A stretch of 64,000 nucleotides of DNA, from NCBI GenBank assembly GCA_963812115.1, contig CAWEUD010000005.1, positions 64,048 through 128,047 on the forward strand. Direction: 5' to 3'. The position numbers and the translations under genes were made by a program. This DNA is from an uncultured Chloroflexia bacterium. GTDB lineage: Bacteria > Chloroflexota > Limnocylindria > QHBO01. The notes under the pieces are model-generated. The model was not told the DNA's origin. It made no database searches and was given only the letters and a program-made list of their open reading frames with translations. Shown piece by piece: positions 35,820 through 42,520 of the stretch (positions within the stretch are counted from its first letter, which is position 1; the number at the start of each line of letters is the position of its first letter).

Positions 35820-36383
35820 ATGCAGATGACCGCCCACGGCGCCCCGCCTCGCAAGGTCACCGACGAGGCCAGCGAGCAGGGGCTGCGGCTGGCAAAGGAG
35901 GCCGGCGAGGCCTACTACCGCATGGTCGAGTACTTCGTGAAGAACGTCGCCACCGCCGGCGACATGCAGCGCGCCGGCGACTACCTCGTCGGCGTCGCAA
36001 CTGAGGAGGCGGAGCCGCTCTGGCACCTGCTCGGAGGACGCCTCGAACTGAAGGAGCCGGCTGTGGGCCTCAACGCTCACCTCGAGGTGGTCGTCATGGA
36101 CGCCGCGGACCATCGCTTCGTCCCGGAGCTGTCGGTCGCCGTCACCGTCGCGACGCGCAATGGGCATGAAGTTGGGACGTATCGGCTCCCGTTCCTGTGG
36201 CACCCGACCATGTACCACTACGGCCACAGCATCCACATCGACGAGGCCGGCGAGTACGACCTGACGGTTTGCATCGCATCACCCACCTTCGGGCGTCACG
36301 ACAAGACGAACGGCAAGCGCTACGCGGAGCCGATCAGCCTGACGTTCGAACGGGTCCGCCTGGAGCCCGGCCGGAAGACCTAG
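35820..36383 (+). CDS. P19/Tp34-like metal-binding 'iron transport' family protein without signal peptide
   Basis: 'AHLEV', 'HYG', 'FGRHDK' resemble P19 motifs; no hydrophobic N-terminus. Confidence 0.65.
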
Positions 36384-36841
36384 GAACCCTGCCCCGGGTC
36401 GGCGAGCTGGACGTACGGTCGGCGCCACTCCGGCGGATCGAACGGCCGTCCGAAGTAGGACACCACGCGCCACACCTTCCCGTCGCGCAGGCGGACGAAC
36501 TGTGCGACGTGCCACGTCTCATTGTTCGGGTAGTGGAGGATTCCCGCGATCCCGAACTCCTCGCCGCTGCCGATGACGTGGACGACGGTATAGGAAGGAC
36601 CCACGACCCACGAGTCGTCGCTACCGAGCACCGGCTTGAGCTCGCCGTGCAGCGGCTCACGATCGAAGCCCGGATAATGCTCAACCATTGCCACGAGGTT
36701 GGCCTTCCCCACGATCCGCTCGCCCGACTGCGGATACTCGTCCACGAAGTCGTCGTGCAGCACTGCCTGGACGCCTTCTTTGTCAAACGCGGCCAGGGCG
36801 CGTGCAAAGCGCTCCACGATCTCGCGAGAACCGCCACTCAT
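36380..36841 (-). CDS. NTF2/SnoaL-like protein
   Basis: 'LHDDFVDEYPQSGERIVGKAN', 'LRDGKV..SYFG.PF..PEWR'. Confidence 0.85.
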   Translation of the reverse strand: MSGGSREIVERFARALAAFDKEGVQAVLHDDFVDEYPQSGERIVGKANLVAMVEHYPGFDREPLHGELKPVLGSDDSWVVGPSYTVVHVIGSGEEFGIAGILHYPNNETWHVAQFVRLRDGKVWRVVSYFGRPFDPPEWRRPYVQLADPGQGS

Positions 36842-36936: not shown

Positions 36937-39018
36937 TCAGTTGCCGCGGTCGGTCCCGGCGATGCTCGACAGGGCTTTGAGCGCGGCCTCCTGCAGGTGC
37001 GGTTCGGGATCGGCAGCAGCGAGACGGCTCAGCAGTCCCGGCAGATCGCCGAGCTCCGCTGCCACGTCGGGGTCGTCACCAGCGCTCCGCTGCGCAGCCA
37101 GCAGCAGCTCCAGGAGGTCGGATCGTCCACGAACCCTGGCATCCACCACCATGCGACGCACGAATCGCAGGACGGGGGCAGTGGCGGGGTAGATCGACCC
37201 GCCGTGAAGGACGGACTCGGTGAGCAACTGCCGCCCATCGGCTCGCAAGCGCTCGTCATCCGCCAGGAGCGTTCGCAGGTGCATCGGCGTGTCGATCGCC
37301 CGGCCATAGGCGTGACTGAGCGCGCGCCAGTCGACGTTGGCGAGATCCCCGAGCAGTTCCTCGACCAGCCGGGTCGGCTCCGACAGGAACCGCTCGCGCC
37401 GCGCCGAGAGCGCCACCTCATCGGGTTGTGCGTCGGATGGGAGACTGTCACGCGCGCTCTCGATCGCCCCCACGATCGCGCGGGCCACCGGATTCGCCGG
37501 TCCCAGCATGCGCTCGGTGAGCTGCTCGATCCGTGTCGCCGTGGCGCGTCCCCCCGCCGGGCCGTACTCGCGCAGCTCCTGCCAGTACTGCTCTCCCAGG
37601 GCCTGGACCGCAAGGGGGTGCCCGCGGCCGTAGGCGCCGGCCAGGATCGCGGTGATTCGCTCGAGGATGGGCAGCACCTCCGCCTCTGTGCCCGCCAGCC
37701 GCAGGATGAGCCGCAGGCGCCGCAACGGCTCGACCAGTTCGGTGCTGTCGGTCCCGAACGCGGAATCGAGAAGACCGATGGCTTCGCGCACACGATCCTG
37801 CGCCGTCACCAGGTTTCCGGTCACGAACGCGGCGTCCGCTTCGTGCAGGAGGGATTCGGCGCGCGCGCGGGCAACCGGCTGCCCGCTCTCGGGTGCGCGG
37901 CGCGCAGCGAACCGGCGAGCGATGGTGCGCAGCTGCTCCGCGGCCTCGTCGCGAGTGAGCTGTGCATCGCTGAAGAATGGCGGCGCGAGGTCCGGCCGCA
38001 GGGTGAGGATCGGCAGGTAGATGGCCGTCGCCTCCGCCACTGCGTCTCCGTCCGTCCCGTGCTGCCCCTCCGAGGCGAGTTTGCTGAAGACCGTCACGAG
38101 CGCCAGTGCGGCATCAACCGTCTCGCGGTGATCCGGGCCGAGCTCGTCGATGCGGATGAGGAACGTCCGTTCGAACGCCTCCCGCGCATCCGCGTAGCGG
38201 CCCTCCGCGAAGGCGAGGTTCCCGATGGCTTCCAGGACGACCGCCGTCCAGCGGCTCATTGGGCCGAAATGGCGCTCGTGGAGGGTCAGCGCCCGCTCGA
38301 GCATCGGCCTTGCGCGATCCGGCTGACCCATGTTGACGTACGACATCCCCACGTTCGCCAGCAGCCGTCCCACGAGATCGCTCTCCGGCCCGATGCCCAG
38401 CTCGGCGGCCGTCAGGGCGCGCTCGTACAACGCCCGTGCCCGTTCACCGCCGTCCGGCAGCGCCGCGACCTTGACCGCCAGGGCGTTCAGCGTCTCGGCC
38501 GTGCGCCGATGGCCTTCGCCAAGTGCACGTTCGCATCGGCGCAGGGATTCCTCGTGGAGGGCGATGGCCTCCTCGTGCCGGCCGGAGCGCCACATGGCCA
38601 CCGCAACGTTGTTGAGGCTCTCGATCGCATCCTCGTCGTCCGGCCCCAGCGCTGCCGCTCGCAGGTCGTACGAGCGTCGCAAGGTTCGCTCCGCCTCGTC
38701 GAGTCGGCCGGCGGTGATCTGGAGCACCCCGAGCAGGTTCAGGGAGCTGCCGAGCGAGGCATCATCGCTGCCCTCCTCATCGGCGCGAACCGCTTCCTCG
38801 GCCAGCGACCATGCGGTGGCCACGTCTCCGATGACGTAGTGGCACTCACCCATCAGCTGTGCCGCCTGCCCAATCTGCTCGGGGCGCCCGGACGCCCGTG
38901 CGGACGCAAGGATTGGCTCGGCAAGGACCATGGCCGAGCGGGGGTCCCCGCCGTCCAGGCGGCGCCGCGCTTCATCGAGGAGTGAAGCGTTCCCGCTCAC
39001 GCGCGGTGTCCCGTCCAC
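36937..39018 (-). CDS. Tetratricopeptide-repeat protein with C-terminal HAYG/HEAT-like module
   Basis: Repeated ~42-aa units 'SLNLLGVL', 'SLNNVAVA', 'TLNALAV', 'LLANVG', 'VLEAIGNL' with 'LGP.(D/H)' spacers; C-term 'VDWRALSHAYG..DTP'. Confidence 0.85.
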   Translation of the reverse strand: MDGTPRVSGNASLLDEARRRLDGGDPRSAMVLAEPILASARASGRPEQIGQAAQLMGECHYVIGDVATAWSLAEEAVRADEEGSDDASLGSSLNLLGVLQITAGRLDEAERTLRRSYDLRAAALGPDDEDAIESLNNVAVAMWRSGRHEEAIALHEESLRRCERALGEGHRRTAETLNALAVKVAALPDGGERARALYERALTAAELGIGPESDLVGRLLANVGMSYVNMGQPDRARPMLERALTLHERHFGPMSRWTAVVLEAIGNLAFAEGRYADAREAFERTFLIRIDELGPDHRETVDAALALVTVFSKLASEGQHGTDGDAVAEATAIYLPILTLRPDLAPPFFSDAQLTRDEAAEQLRTIARRFAARRAPESGQPVARARAESLLHEADAAFVTGNLVTAQDRVREAIGLLDSAFGTDSTELVEPLRRLRLILRLAGTEAEVLPILERITAILAGAYGRGHPLAVQALGEQYWQELREYGPAGGRATATRIEQLTERMLGPANPVARAIVGAIESARDSLPSDAQPDEVALSARRERFLSEPTRLVEELLGDLANVDWRALSHAYGRAIDTPMHLRTLLADDERLRADGRQLLTESVLHGGSIYPATAPVLRFVRRMVVDARVRGRSDLLELLLAAQRSAGDDPDVAAELGDLPGLLSRLAAADPEPHLQEAALKALSSIAGTDRGN

Positions 39019-39033: not shown

Positions 39034-39660
39034 TTAGCCGGTCTCCCCGGGGTCCCCGGCGACGGCCATCTGCCCACCGGTGGCGATTCCCGTCTCCCGA
39101 TGGTAGGGCGCCGTGGCCGCATCGTTCATCTCGAAGCGGGATGGCGGCGCGGCATCCGCCAGCTGCTCGACCTCCTCGTGGGTCAGCTCGTAGCCGTAGC
39201 GGATGGCGGCGACGTTTTCGTCCTGGAAGCGGCGGGGCAGCGACTCGCGGATGGCGGCCTCGTGGAACTCGATCTCGGCGAGGCGGAGCAGACGCCCCAG
39301 GGCGATCATGTTGCCGAACAGCTCCTTGCCGAACTTCTCGCTGCCGAGCGAAGCGAAGGGAATCTGCTCCGCACCCGGGACGTTGAGGCCGAGGTCGGTG
39401 ATGACCACCTTGCCGTGGATGCGCATGTGCCCCTTGTCGGCGAGCTTGAGCATGATGTCCGCCTCCTCGACCACCGGGTTGAGGATGGGTTCGTCGTCGA
39501 AGATCACGAACGCGTCGGACATGCTGCCGCGCACGCTCGAGTCGTAGTCGAAGAGGACCGTCACCTCCTTGCCCATGCGCGCCAGCAGTGCCCCGAGCAC
39601 GCCCGCGATGACGCGGACCCCCTGGCCGCCAACCCCATCTAGGGCAATTCGCGTGACCAT
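39034..39660 (-). CDS. korC: 2-oxoacid:ferredoxin oxidoreductase gamma subunit
   Basis: 'IALDGVGGQGV', 'YDSSVRGSMS..V', 'GNMIALG'. Confidence 0.85.
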   Translation of the reverse strand: MVTRIALDGVGGQGVRVIAGVLGALLARMGKEVTVLFDYDSSVRGSMSDAFVIFDDEPILNPVVEEADIMLKLADKGHMRIHGKVVITDLGLNVPGAEQIPFASLGSEKFGKELFGNMIALGRLLRLAEIEFHEAAIRESLPRRFQDENVAAIRYGYELTHEEVEQLADAAPPSRFEMNDAATAPYHRETGIATGGQMAVAGDPGETG

Positions 39661-39662
39661 GG

Positions 39663-41084
39663 CTAGGCGGATGCCTCCGGGTCCACGCCCGCCTCGCGAA
39701 GGGCTTCCTCGAGGCTGATCTCGCGCTTCGCGACGCGCAGCTTCAGCTCCGACGGCAGCCCCTGCATCAGCGCCAGCTTGCGCTGTGATTCGGCCTTGCG
39801 CTGCTCCTTCGGATCGAGGTCCGCCGGCGCTGCATCCCCGCTCGAGAGCGGCCGTGCCGGTTGTGCGCTGCCGGTCTCCTCGACGGCAGCCTCGGCCTTC
39901 TGCGCCGAAAGGTCGTCGGGTTGGTGCTGGGTCCGTGGATCGCGGCCGCTCTCGCTGATCACGACGTCGCCGGCGGCGACCGGAGCGCCGGCAGGCGCGC
40001 TGGCCCCGGTACGCAGCCACTCGGGGATCTGGATCCCGGCGCTGGCAAGCGCCTCGAGCAGGGTGAGCTCCTTGCGGGCGACCTGCATCTTCACGTCCGC
40101 GGAGAGCTGGCCCATCAGCTTGGCCCGCTCCTGCGACTCGGCGCGGCGGTGTGCCTTCTCGTCGTCGTCGGCCATGGGCGCCTTGGCGGTCGCACCGGCG
40201 GCACCGGGCGACTCGGTGGCCGATGCCATCGGTCCAGTCGGCTGCGCCGGCAGGTCATCGGGACGTGCGGGAGCCGATGTCGTGCTGGACCCGTTGCCGT
40301 TCGTGGATCCCGCGGCGCCATCGGCCTTCGGGTAGAGGACGCCGATCTCGAACGGGTTGAGGCGCTCGGCATCCTTCGCGGCGCGCTTGTAGGTCTTGCG
40401 GTAGAAGGTGAGCATCTCGTTGGCGCTGGCGAAGCCGATGCGCCGGCCGTTGTTCTCGATGCACTGGCTGGTGATGTCCACGAAGCTGAAGCCGTCGTGC
40501 TCAACCGCCTCGCGAATCACGTTGCGCATGTGCTGCTGGTGGTACACCGTCGTCTTGGCGTAGAGCGAATGCGGCGACGAGCGCACCAGGCCCTGGAGGT
40601 TGATGGGCGTATTCGGGTTGCCGGCCGGGCTGGAGAGCGTCTTGGTGCCCGACGGCGTGGTCGGACCGGTCTGGCCGCCGGTGAGCCCGTAGATCTCGTT
40701 GTTGTTGCAGAGCACCGTCAGGCGGGCGTTGCGGCGGATGGCGTGGATGAGGTGGTTGCCGCCGATGCTGGCCGTGTCCCCGTCCCCTGAGACCACGATC
40801 ACATGCATCTCCGGGCGCACCGTCTTGATCGCCTCGGCGACCGGCAGCGTCCTGCCGTGCAGCGTGTAGACGCTCTCGTACTTCATGTAGCTGCCCATGC
40901 GCCCGGTGCAGCCGATGCCGGTCACGACGATGGTGTTCGTCTCGTCCATGCCCATCTCCTCGAGCACCATCGCCAGCTGGATCATGATCGTGCCGATGCC
41001 GCAGCCCGGGCACCAGATGGTCGGGAAGAGGTCGACCTTCAGGTTGTTCTTGAACCCCATCTCGGCCATCACCGCCTCGGGCAT
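39663..41084 (-). CDS. korB: 2-oxoacid:ferredoxin oxidoreductase beta subunit with ~200-aa C-terminal extension
   Basis: 'WCPGCG', 'GIGCTGR', 'HGRTLP', TPP motif 'GDGDTASIGGNH..NNEIYGLTGGQ', 'SQC'. Confidence 0.9.
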   Translation of the reverse strand: MPEAVMAEMGFKNNLKVDLFPTIWCPGCGIGTIMIQLAMVLEEMGMDETNTIVVTGIGCTGRMGSYMKYESVYTLHGRTLPVAEAIKTVRPEMHVIVVSGDGDTASIGGNHLIHAIRRNARLTVLCNNNEIYGLTGGQTGPTTPSGTKTLSSPAGNPNTPINLQGLVRSSPHSLYAKTTVYHQQHMRNVIREAVEHDGFSFVDITSQCIENNGRRIGFASANEMLTFYRKTYKRAAKDAERLNPFEIGVLYPKADGAAGSTNGNGSSTTSAPARPDDLPAQPTGPMASATESPGAAGATAKAPMADDDEKAHRRAESQERAKLMGQLSADVKMQVARKELTLLEALASAGIQIPEWLRTGASAPAGAPVAAGDVVISESGRDPRTQHQPDDLSAQKAEAAVEETGSAQPARPLSSGDAAPADLDPKEQRKAESQRKLALMQGLPSELKLRVAKREISLEEALREAGVDPEASA

Positions 41085-42224
41085 CAGCCGATCCCCAAGG
41101 GCGAGCGAGGCACGGCCGCGACAGGCGGTGCCGGAATCGGCGGCTCGGAGGGCCCGCCCGACAGGACGCGCTCCAGGCCGTCGCGGACCGCTTCGAGCGA
41201 TACCCGCCCACCGAGCAGCGGAACGCGCTTGACCTCGCGGCCGAGGGCCAGCTGCGCCATGTCGGCGTACTGGCCGTCGTTCGCCTCGACGCAGACGATC
41301 TGCTCGTACCGGTCGGCGATCTCCTTCAGCTCGTCGGAAAGCATGGGATGGATTCGGATCGGCCGGAAGAGCGCGTACTCGCTGGCCAGCGGAGCCGCCA
41401 CGCGGCTGACGATCCCGTAGGCGATCATCAGGGTCTTGGCATCCACGTTCCAGCCGTGCTCGTAGAACGCGTAGCGCTTCGCGACTTCGGCGTGCCGGTG
41501 CTTGGCGGCGTAGAACTGGCGCAGGTACTCGTCGGCGTCGGCGGTCGCGGGCTCGCCGGCGTTCGGGCCCGTGCTCGTACATCAGCACGCCGGCGAAGAA
41601 GCGCGGCTTCCCCGGCTCGTGCTTTCCCAGCGGCGGGATGCTGCGCTCGACCACGCGGAGGCCATCGCGGAGCTCATCGAGGTCCACCACCTCGTTGAGG
41701 TGGCCGACGAACGTGTCGGTCAGGACGACGACCGGGCTGCGCGACTCCTCGGCCGCGTTGAAGGCCTCGACGGTGATGCGGAAGGCCTCCGCCACGCCGT
41801 TCGGGTAGAAGGCGAGCGGACTGTAGTCGCCGGTGCTGCCGTACCTGACCTGCATGATGTCGCCCTGGCCCGGCATCGTCGGCATGCCAGTCGCCGGACC
41901 CACGCGCTGCACGTTTACGAACACGGTCGGGATGCCAACCTTCTGCCCGTAGCCGACCGCCTCCTGCATCAGGCTGAAGCCCGGGCCGCTGGTGGCGGTG
42001 AAGGATTTTGCGCCCGCGAGCGAGGCGCCCATGATCGCGTTCGCGCTGGCGATCTCGTCCTCCTCCTGGAGGAAGCGGAACTCGGGGTGCTCACTGGCCC
42101 AGCCGGAGGCGACGTTCAGGATCTCGGTGGACGGAGAGATGGGATAGCCGGCGTAGTAGCTGGCCCCTGCCGCGACCGCTCCGCGGAAGACGGCTTCATT
42201 ACCCTGGGTCAGCTTCCGCGTCAT
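41084..42224 (-). CDS. korA: 2-oxoacid:ferredoxin oxidoreductase alpha subunit, frameshifted near 41567
   Basis: 'GNEA', 'GYPISPSTE', 'QEEDEIA', 'ATSGPGFSLMQE', 'RVGPATGMPT'; C-half 'IAYGIVSR', 'VEANDGQY' in the +1 frame. Confidence 0.9.
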
Positions 42225-42520
42225 TCGGCCTTCCCCTTGGCCTCGTGGGCGGCGACCGCCGAGGGAATCATTTCGATGGCGAGGTCCGGGCAGTAGCGCT
42301 CGCAGAGGCCGCAGAGGATGCAGTTCTGCTCCTCGATGATGGCGTCGTTGCGCAGGACGAGGGTGTCCTTCGGACAGATCTCGACGCAGATGTCGCACCG
42401 CTTGCAGAAGACGGGGTTCCAGCTGATGTTGGCGTAGTCAACCCAGCGAATGCCGTCCTTGTGGTCGTCGGAGATGCTGGAGCCGAAGCCGATGGCCCCC
42501 GAAGCTCGGTCTCGTGTCAT
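42221..42520 (-). CDS. korD: 2x[4Fe-4S] ferredoxin-like delta subunit
   Basis: 'CKRCDICVEICP', 'CILCGLCERYCPDLAI'; ATGA overlap with korA. Confidence 0.87.
   Translation of the reverse strand: MTRDRASGAIGFGSSISDDHKDGIRWVDYANISWNPVFCKRCDICVEICPKDTLVLRNDAIIEEQNCILCGLCERYCPDLAIEMIPSAVAAHEAKGKAE

Follow-up and report, generated by a model that had tools for sequence, protein, structure and literature searches.

The 64,000-nucleotide stretch analysed here (the window: contig CAWEUD010000005.1 of assembly GCA_963812115.1, positions 64,048 to 128,047 of the forward strand) comes from an uncultured Chloroflexia bacterium of the Limnocylindria and carries, on its minus strand, a gene for KorB, the beta subunit of a 2-oxoacid:ferredoxin oxidoreductase (OFOR). 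We found that this 473-aa protein (41084..39663, start ATG at 41084) continues in frame beyond a normal core into a 221-aa tail that contains two related modules, R1 and R2, each predicted to be helical. Judged by sequence, the enzyme is of a known type, the OorDABC-type four-subunit 2-oxoacid:acceptor oxidoreductase, and what is new is the conserved two-module helical tail.

The core of KorB (aa 1-252, 40329..41084, minus strand) is an OorB-type domain that binds thiamine pyrophosphate (TPP). PF02775 spanned aa 57-204 in a Pfam scan (E 1.3e-28), the NCBIfam model NF007207 (KorB, 2-oxoglutarate beta) spanned aa 11-251, and the Mg-TPP motif GDG...NN was legible as GDGDTASIGGNH...CNNNE. The proximal-cluster cysteines C25, C28, C59 and C208 aligned with C19, C22, C53 and C202 of Helicobacter pylori OorB, whose proximal [4Fe-4S] cluster ligands have been listed (PMC12307629), and they were invariant in 75 homologues. 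H. pylori OorDABC, a 2-oxoglutarate:acceptor oxidoreductase (OOR), was also the closest solved relative: residues 5-251 of its OorB (8YS5/8YS6 chain C, 273 aa) aligned with KorB aa 11-252 (E 5e-55), and the two enzymes have the four-subunit delta-alpha-beta-gamma composition in common. However, the H. pylori protein stops 22 residues past the aligned core and has neither a tail nor helical modules. A codon-level analysis of 12 two-module loci, which is the source of all ratios of nonsynonymous to synonymous substitution (dN/dS) given here, yielded 0.15 for the core. The NF007207 score was 214.2 bits against a curated cut-off of 364, short of a substrate-level equivalog assignment, and TIGR02177 scored 204.2 bits, below its curated threshold of 261.9. 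Because these equivalog scores fall below the curated cut-offs, the substrate of the enzyme was left unassigned. With the core under the 2-oxoglutarate cut-offs, and with a canonical 2-oxoglutarate dehydrogenase E1 encoded in the same genome, the label of a central carbon enzyme, given to KorB in an earlier note on this DNA, is uncertain.

The tail occupies nt 39666-40328, directly after aa 252, and ends at the stop codon 39663-39665. The earlier note had described it as an in-frame extension of about 200 aa, with two related units aligning at about 21 of 46 positions, on a kind of subunit whose characterised members measure about 250-330 aa and end after the core. The measured tail agrees well with this description: the frame is kept among homologues, the solved beta subunits are 273-305 aa long, and BLASTP aligned R1 and R2 without a gap over 47 positions, 22 identical and 34 positive (E = 1e-12), a similarity far above chance. 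The comparison refined the units to R1, a three-helix module at aa 307-351 (40032..40166, minus strand), and R2 at aa 424-468 (39681..39815, minus strand), which is followed by five residues and the stop codon. The dN/dS was 0.26 for both.

The stretches around the modules, described before as low-complexity linkers, proved to be of two kinds. The name fits the variable spacer rich in G/N/S/T/A that follows the core (aa 253-273, 40266..40328, minus strand), which has a mean amino-acid identity of 0.36, evolves nearly neutrally (dN/dS 0.84) and is modelled with a predicted local distance difference test score (pLDDT) below 50. It does not fit three other stretches, motif A, motif B and the short helix C, which are conserved like the repeats. 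Motif A (aa 274-293, 40206..40265, minus strand) reads RPxxLPxQPxGPMxSxxxxP and has a dN/dS of 0.23; its residues R274, P275, L278, P279 and Q281 are invariant in the 75-sequence alignment, from which all invariant tail residues were read. Between motif A and R1, aa 294-306 have a dN/dS of 0.54. Motif B follows R1 (aa 352-383, 39936..40031, minus strand; dN/dS 0.24) and reads (I)PEWLRTGASAPAGAPVAxGxVxISxSGxDP, with P354, E355, R358, S362, A363, P364, P368 and S377 invariant. Helix C (aa 384-402, 39879..39935, minus strand; dN/dS 0.23) has the pattern QPxxLxAQKAEAxxE, a predicted helix at 391-402 and the invariant residues L392, A394, E398 and E402. The last stretch before R2 (aa 403-423, 39816..39878, minus strand), QPAxP..DAAP, is Pro-rich and moderately conserved (dN/dS 0.33). 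The linker of the tail is acidic, with a net charge of -8, and the modules are near neutral (net 0 and +1).

A word-seeded search limited to the tail returned 445 proteins at E <= 0.001. Among the matches listed (120 of the 445), the tails were 58-94% identical to that of KorB in the window, and nearly all proteins were KorB of 440-490 aa; about ten were shorter, truncated gene calls. Stand-alone tail proteins of about 290 aa without PF02775 were rejected as a separate class, since they start at the internal Met186 of KorB and are thus truncated gene calls as well. The tail matches for which names were given belonged to Candidatus Limnocylindria or to metagenome-assembled genomes (MAGs) of Chloroflexota. 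NCBI MAG records assign a few tailed KorB proteins (P0014, P0027 and P0067) to Methylomirabilota or Zixibacteria; with the tail otherwise confined to one Limnocylindria family, the probable cause is an error of binning or taxonomy in these MAGs. Furthermore, the sibling operon L039, at 91% nucleotide identity, showed zero indels from the start of the delta gene to the end of the gamma gene, save one base in korA. The frame of the tail is genuine, then, because 445 homologues carry the same tail, the L039 tail is free of indels, and dN/dS lies well below 1. Taken together, these comparisons indicate that the tail is a real, translated part of the protein and under selection. In one relative, L032 (G439:C1), KorB is 323 aa long and lacks the module; its end is rich in Arg and looks off-frame, probably because the tail is frameshifted in this assembly.

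The fold of the tail was predicted with AlphaFold2, using the 75-sequence alignment for the full chain and 33 aligned repeats for the module alone. In the full-chain model the core was modelled moderately well, and R1 and R2 each formed three helices with pLDDT 73-85 (307-325, 329-336 and 342-348 in R1; 425-441, 445-452 and 458-464 in R2). Between the modules pLDDT stayed below 50 except in helix C, where a helix was called. Modelled alone, the module gave the same three helices at pLDDT 81.5, and we conclude that the modules are predicted to be autonomously folding three-helix units. Seven positions of the module are invariant across both repeats (M21, L24, K29, A33, E36, L39 and A42) and five more are nearly so (A12, E13, Q15, A46 and G47), a pattern compatible with a small hydrophobic core and a few conserved, charged residues on the surface. 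In the long first helix, the N-terminal half (KARRRAESQ) carries strong charge.

No relative of the module was found in the libraries that we searched. Profile scans of the 221-aa tail gave no Pfam or NCBIfam match above threshold (Pfam to E up to 1), and Pfam scans of 33 module sequences, run to E up to 10, yielded nothing but partial matches below threshold. A Foldseek comparison of the module model with PDB and BFVD gave no match at E < 1, the module profile reached a best E of 0.64 against all PDB sequences, and no PDB chain had sequence similarity to KorB outside the core. Several candidates were rejected on inspection. DUF7931 (PF25559) scored 14-17 bits against a gathering cut-off of 27 and covered about 30 of 149 profile positions, and RIO1, 56B_RHH and other Pfam candidates were likewise sub-threshold and partial. 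The Plectin repeat (PF00681; ISLxEAxxxG) appeared as one weak reverse match summed over 11 short stretches, with no forward Pfam match, and this resemblance is probably a shared, generic helix N-cap motif. Thus the module appears to be a domain described in no library searched, in keeping with the previous description of the repeats as unrecognised.

We then turned to the distribution of the module, for which the earlier note had asked whether a repeat profile would find other host domains. Searched against 1.84 billion representative proteins, the module profile returned 34 matches. Thirty-one were KorB tails, their fragments or frameshifted calls (18 of these were read), one (P0150, 77 aa) was a KorB tail fragment joined to a NuoA-like N-terminal piece, and two (P0149 and P0153) were weak matches to repeat proteins. 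The profile thus found KorB tails and their fragments besides one chimera-like and two weak matches. We rejected the presence of the module in other host proteins, as P0150 and P0143 (76 aa) resemble chimeric or contig-edge gene calls. Within the genome of the window the profile matched twice, both times in KorB. Among 401 genomes sampled evenly across the phylum, the module was present in 16 of 17 genomes of the family to which the window belongs and in none of the 384 others, which included other families of the class. The module is therefore confined to one uncultured soil family of the Limnocylindria (Chloroflexota).

Searching with the core only, we recovered an orthologue of 84-92% identity from 37 of the 41 family genomes; a second family had, in three of its genera, an orthologue whose core is 68-72% identical. 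These sister-family loci (L035-L038) have the same korDABG order as the window. Their KorB, however, ends about 20 residues after the core, with the gamma gene directly next, whereas the KorB of the window has its 221-aa tail. Because the sister orthologues stop so soon after the core, the tail was gained at the base of one family, on an existing OorB-type gene.

Within the family, relatives have either two-module proteins of 459-558 aa or one-module proteins of 341-362 aa, and 0-4 residues separate the terminal module from the stop codon in all relatives examined. In a tree of KorA plus the KorB core, rooted on the untailed orthologues, the deep branches were all two-module, and well-supported branches forced the one-module forms into at least two nested places. 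The two-module form looks ancestral on this tree, and the one-module forms look to have arisen at least twice. Moreover, the single modules are R1-like in their first 17 positions and R2-like in the remainder, a mosaic that unequal recombination between R1 and R2, with loss of the interval, would be expected to leave. The one-module forms thus look like R1/R2 recombinants. The identity between R1 and R2 within one genome reached 0.67 in L013 and 0.58 in L026, against a mean of 0.49 for R1-R2 pairs, which suggests gene conversion between the repeats in these two genomes. One module is evidently enough in several genera.

KorB lies in a four-gene operon on the minus strand (39034-42520) in the order delta, alpha, beta, gamma. 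The korD/oorD-like delta subunit (42221..42520, minus strand; 99 aa) has two 4Fe-4S motifs and matches of the Fer4 family. The korA/oorA-like alpha gene (41084..42224, minus strand) has a reading frame interrupted by one extra base at about 41561-41573, within CACGGGCCCGAAC. The korG/oorC-like gamma subunit (39034..39660, minus strand; 208 aa) matched PF01558 at 4.3e-19, and its gene starts 2 nt past the KorB stop codon. The gene order is identical in the relatives L001 and L039, and at all three loci KorB is accompanied by a Fer4 delta, a POR_N alpha and a POR gamma subunit, the context of an OFOR beta subunit. By tblastn, the intact 378-aa KorA of L001 aligns to the window in two frames that part at '..YEHGP'; '..VLMYEHGP' closes the N-terminal piece, and the C-terminal piece resumes in the +1 frame as 'GPNAGEPATADADEY..'. 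This is a single 1-nt gap relative to the sibling L039, and the extra base was present neither there nor in four genomes of the same genus. Either the assembly is wrong here or the strain has an inactivating mutation of its own, and the operon has no lesion other than this base. A 911-aa open reading frame of a mechanical list (39663..42398) was rejected as a gene; it consists of the N-terminal part of KorA, an off-frame stretch and KorB, which share one open frame by chance.

Directly downstream of korG, on the same strand, lies a gene for a 693-aa TPR-repeat protein (36937-39018, minus strand; TPR_12 and TPR_10), with a SnoaL_2 gene beyond it at 36380-36841. The sibling L039 has the SnoaL_2 gene directly after korG, and for this reason we regard the TPR gene as an insertion specific to the genome of the window. 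The TPR protein was rejected as a conserved partner of KorB, since it does not occur at that position in L039 and L001.

The other subunits also showed family-specific ends. The C-terminus of the gamma subunit (39034-39660) is Pro/Ala-rich and ends '..LADAAPPSRFEMNDAATAPYHRETGIATGGQMAVAGDPGETG', and that of the alpha subunit (41084-41200) is Pro/Ala-rich as well and ends '..GGPSEPPIPAPPVAAVPRSPLGIG'; both are unlike their counterparts in the sister family. In the sister family the longest korD reading frames (L035 888-1418, L037 1110-1502 and L038 1123-1545) encode 130-176 aa, against 99 aa in the window; counted from the likely start, those of L037 and L038 come to about 130-140 aa. Their C-terminal extension of about 50 aa ends in the conserved VPDxAxGPAVAGTxPxRGxTDxESAPxVDRxNxT and has no counterpart in the delta subunit of the window. 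It is another undescribed lineage-specific appendage on an OFOR. Comparison of this delta tail with the beta tail gave scattered low-complexity matches only, with no sequence relation found, and the delta extension is compatible with a lineage-specific elaboration of the same enzyme face.

Our favoured reading, to which we give slightly less than an even chance, is that the tail is a flexible arm with one or two autonomous protein-docking modules that would dock either on the enzyme itself or on another protein, for instance the electron acceptor; here we infer both the docking and its target. Four features point to a binding module on a flexible tether and away from a rigid additional domain: the modules are predicted to fold by themselves, the spacer can vary in length and sequence, there are one or two copies, and the modules are under purifying selection. 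The module is always C-terminal, and the linkers vary in length along with the total length of the proteins (341-558 aa); a copy number of one or two among relatives is typical of tethered modules. The earlier note had proposed a tethered interaction or oligomerisation module. This architecture (self-folding modules, spacer dN/dS 0.84 versus 0.26 in the modules, one or two copies) bears out the tethering; the roles suggested there (scaffolding, docking of a ferredoxin or regulator, condensate formation) are candidates only, as our searches turned up neither a partner nor a homologous domain nor a structural analogue.

The geometry of solved enzymes is consistent with such an arm. The acceptor-side pocket of H. 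pylori OOR is where its beta subunit touches delta and gamma (PMC12307629). Domain VII of the pyruvate:ferredoxin oxidoreductase of Desulfovibrio africanus (DaPFOR) and the C-terminus of the Sulfolobus tokodaii OFOR (StOFOR) beta subunit extend over the other subunit (PMC5020499; PMC12337175), the latter as a helix formed by the last 23 residues, 283b-305b (PMC5020499). Both extensions follow domain VI, the beta core, and depart at the dimer interface (PMC5020499), and the KorB tail likewise starts directly after the core, at aa 253. The tail would thus leave the enzyme at the beta C-terminus, where domain VII and the Sulfolobus helix also depart. From this point an arm of 220 residues could extend to delta and gamma in either protomer, or to whatever docks there, so the modules may bind back to the delta/gamma face of the enzyme or bind a partner, for example the electron acceptor. 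Whereas the two known extensions are single and unrepeated, the KorB tail has 221 residues, two predicted three-helix modules, flexible spacers, no Cys and no detectable sequence similarity to them. The known extensions measure roughly 20-60 residues.

The design of the tail also recalls the E2 chains of 2-oxoacid dehydrogenases. These carry small autonomous domains (lipoyl and peripheral-subunit-binding) in variable copy number on Ala/Pro-rich linkers, and small domains on Pro/Ala-rich linkers of a 2-oxoacid-oxidising enzyme are common to both. The KorB tail differs in giving no lipoyl/biotinyl match and no match to E3_binding (PF02817; tail to E up to 1, 33 module sequences to E up to 10), in its three-helix fold and in belonging to another enzyme superfamily. 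Nor do the modules have a conserved modifiable Lys or Ser in a suitable context.

Three observations weigh against docking modules on a flexible arm. First, no conserved neighbour gene beyond korDABG was found in the window, L001 and L039, and the loci thus offered no partner candidate. Second, searches with Foldseek, among PDB sequences and in Pfam brought up no counterpart, in structure or sequence, of a docking domain already known. Third, the one-module lineages lack motifs B-D, and some of them also lack motif A; either these motifs have a dispensable role of their own, or one docking model understates how plastic the function is.

One alternative is a static shielding arm of the domain VII type, in which the tail would wrap the partner protomer and cover the delta clusters, guarding them against oxygen or tuning their potentials in oxic soil. 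The conserved extended motifs with hydrophobic anchors (PEW and VxIS) do resemble surface-binding strands, and the aerobic-type 2-oxoglutarate dehydrogenase in the genome suggests an oxic lifestyle. However, domain VII has a redox-active Cys pair as its defining feature and works through a disulfide, whereas the KorB tail contains no Cys at all and hence no pair of this type. Moreover, the neutral 21-aa spacer and the Pro/Ala-rich linkers favour a loose tether over a tight wrap, the one-module forms do without most of the arm, and no PDB chain resembles KorB outside the core. We consider a shielding arm unlikely.

Self-association of the modules, in trans or between R1 and R2, would connect OFOR dimers in assemblies of higher order or in condensates. 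Assembly commonly rests on multivalency, and two related copies sit here on a flexible, partly disordered, acidic linker; the signs of concerted evolution in L026 and L013 also point in this direction. Nevertheless, the single module of several genera halves the valency, and Pfam scans of the tail and the modules gave no coiled-coil or oligomerisation family match, so that assembly through the modules seems improbable.

By eye, the module also recalls the helix-turn-helix (HTH) of ParB (pattern LPxxVxxxVxxGxIS), which would make it a nucleic-acid-binding module with a moonlighting or localisation role. The best local hhalign alignment with ParB proteins, taken from the same family plus two other families of the class, falls exactly on the HTH stretch. 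Yet the probability of this single comparison was only 0.6% (E 0.1), no HTH or ParB family appeared in the Pfam scans of the 33 modules, the modules are near neutral in charge, and Foldseek gave no match. We rejected the ParB-type HTH as unsupported, and nucleic-acid binding is in our view very improbable. The last alternative, that the tail is a frameshifted read-through in a MAG or a neutral, functionless lineage-specific accretion, can point to the korA frameshift as at least one indel of the assembly and to the long spurious open frames that persist in high-GC genomes, but it is already largely refuted, with a likelihood close to negligible, by the recurrence of the in-frame tail in hundreds of independent assemblies, the dN/dS of 0.23-0.26 in modules and motifs, the lack of indels relative to the sibling operon and the confidently predicted fold.

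OFORs are ancient and oxygen-sensitive enzymes, and how aerobes sustain them and couple their acceptors is not settled. It is possible, though we regard it as rather doubtful, that the module is an undescribed docking domain that evolved de novo on the OFOR and would tether an electron acceptor or another partner, or build a supramolecular assembly, and thereby let an oxygen-sensitive, low-potential enzyme work in oxic soil bacteria; the delta extension of the sister family would then be an independent answer. A search of one literature library returned no paper linking Limnocylindria with ferredoxin oxidoreductases. To our knowledge, cluster shielding has so far been attributed to a single C-terminal OFOR extension, domain VII of DaPFOR. 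The KorB tail is a second C-terminal extension at the same exit point, far larger, modular and under purifying selection, in an abundant uncultured soil lineage. The one-module, two-module and tail-less orthologues form a natural comparison series, which makes the finding easy to test. Should the module turn out to be a docking domain, it would constitute a new protein family and provide a handle on the partner choice of OFORs; should deletion of the tail be without effect, the tail would illustrate lineage-specific accretion on a core enzyme.

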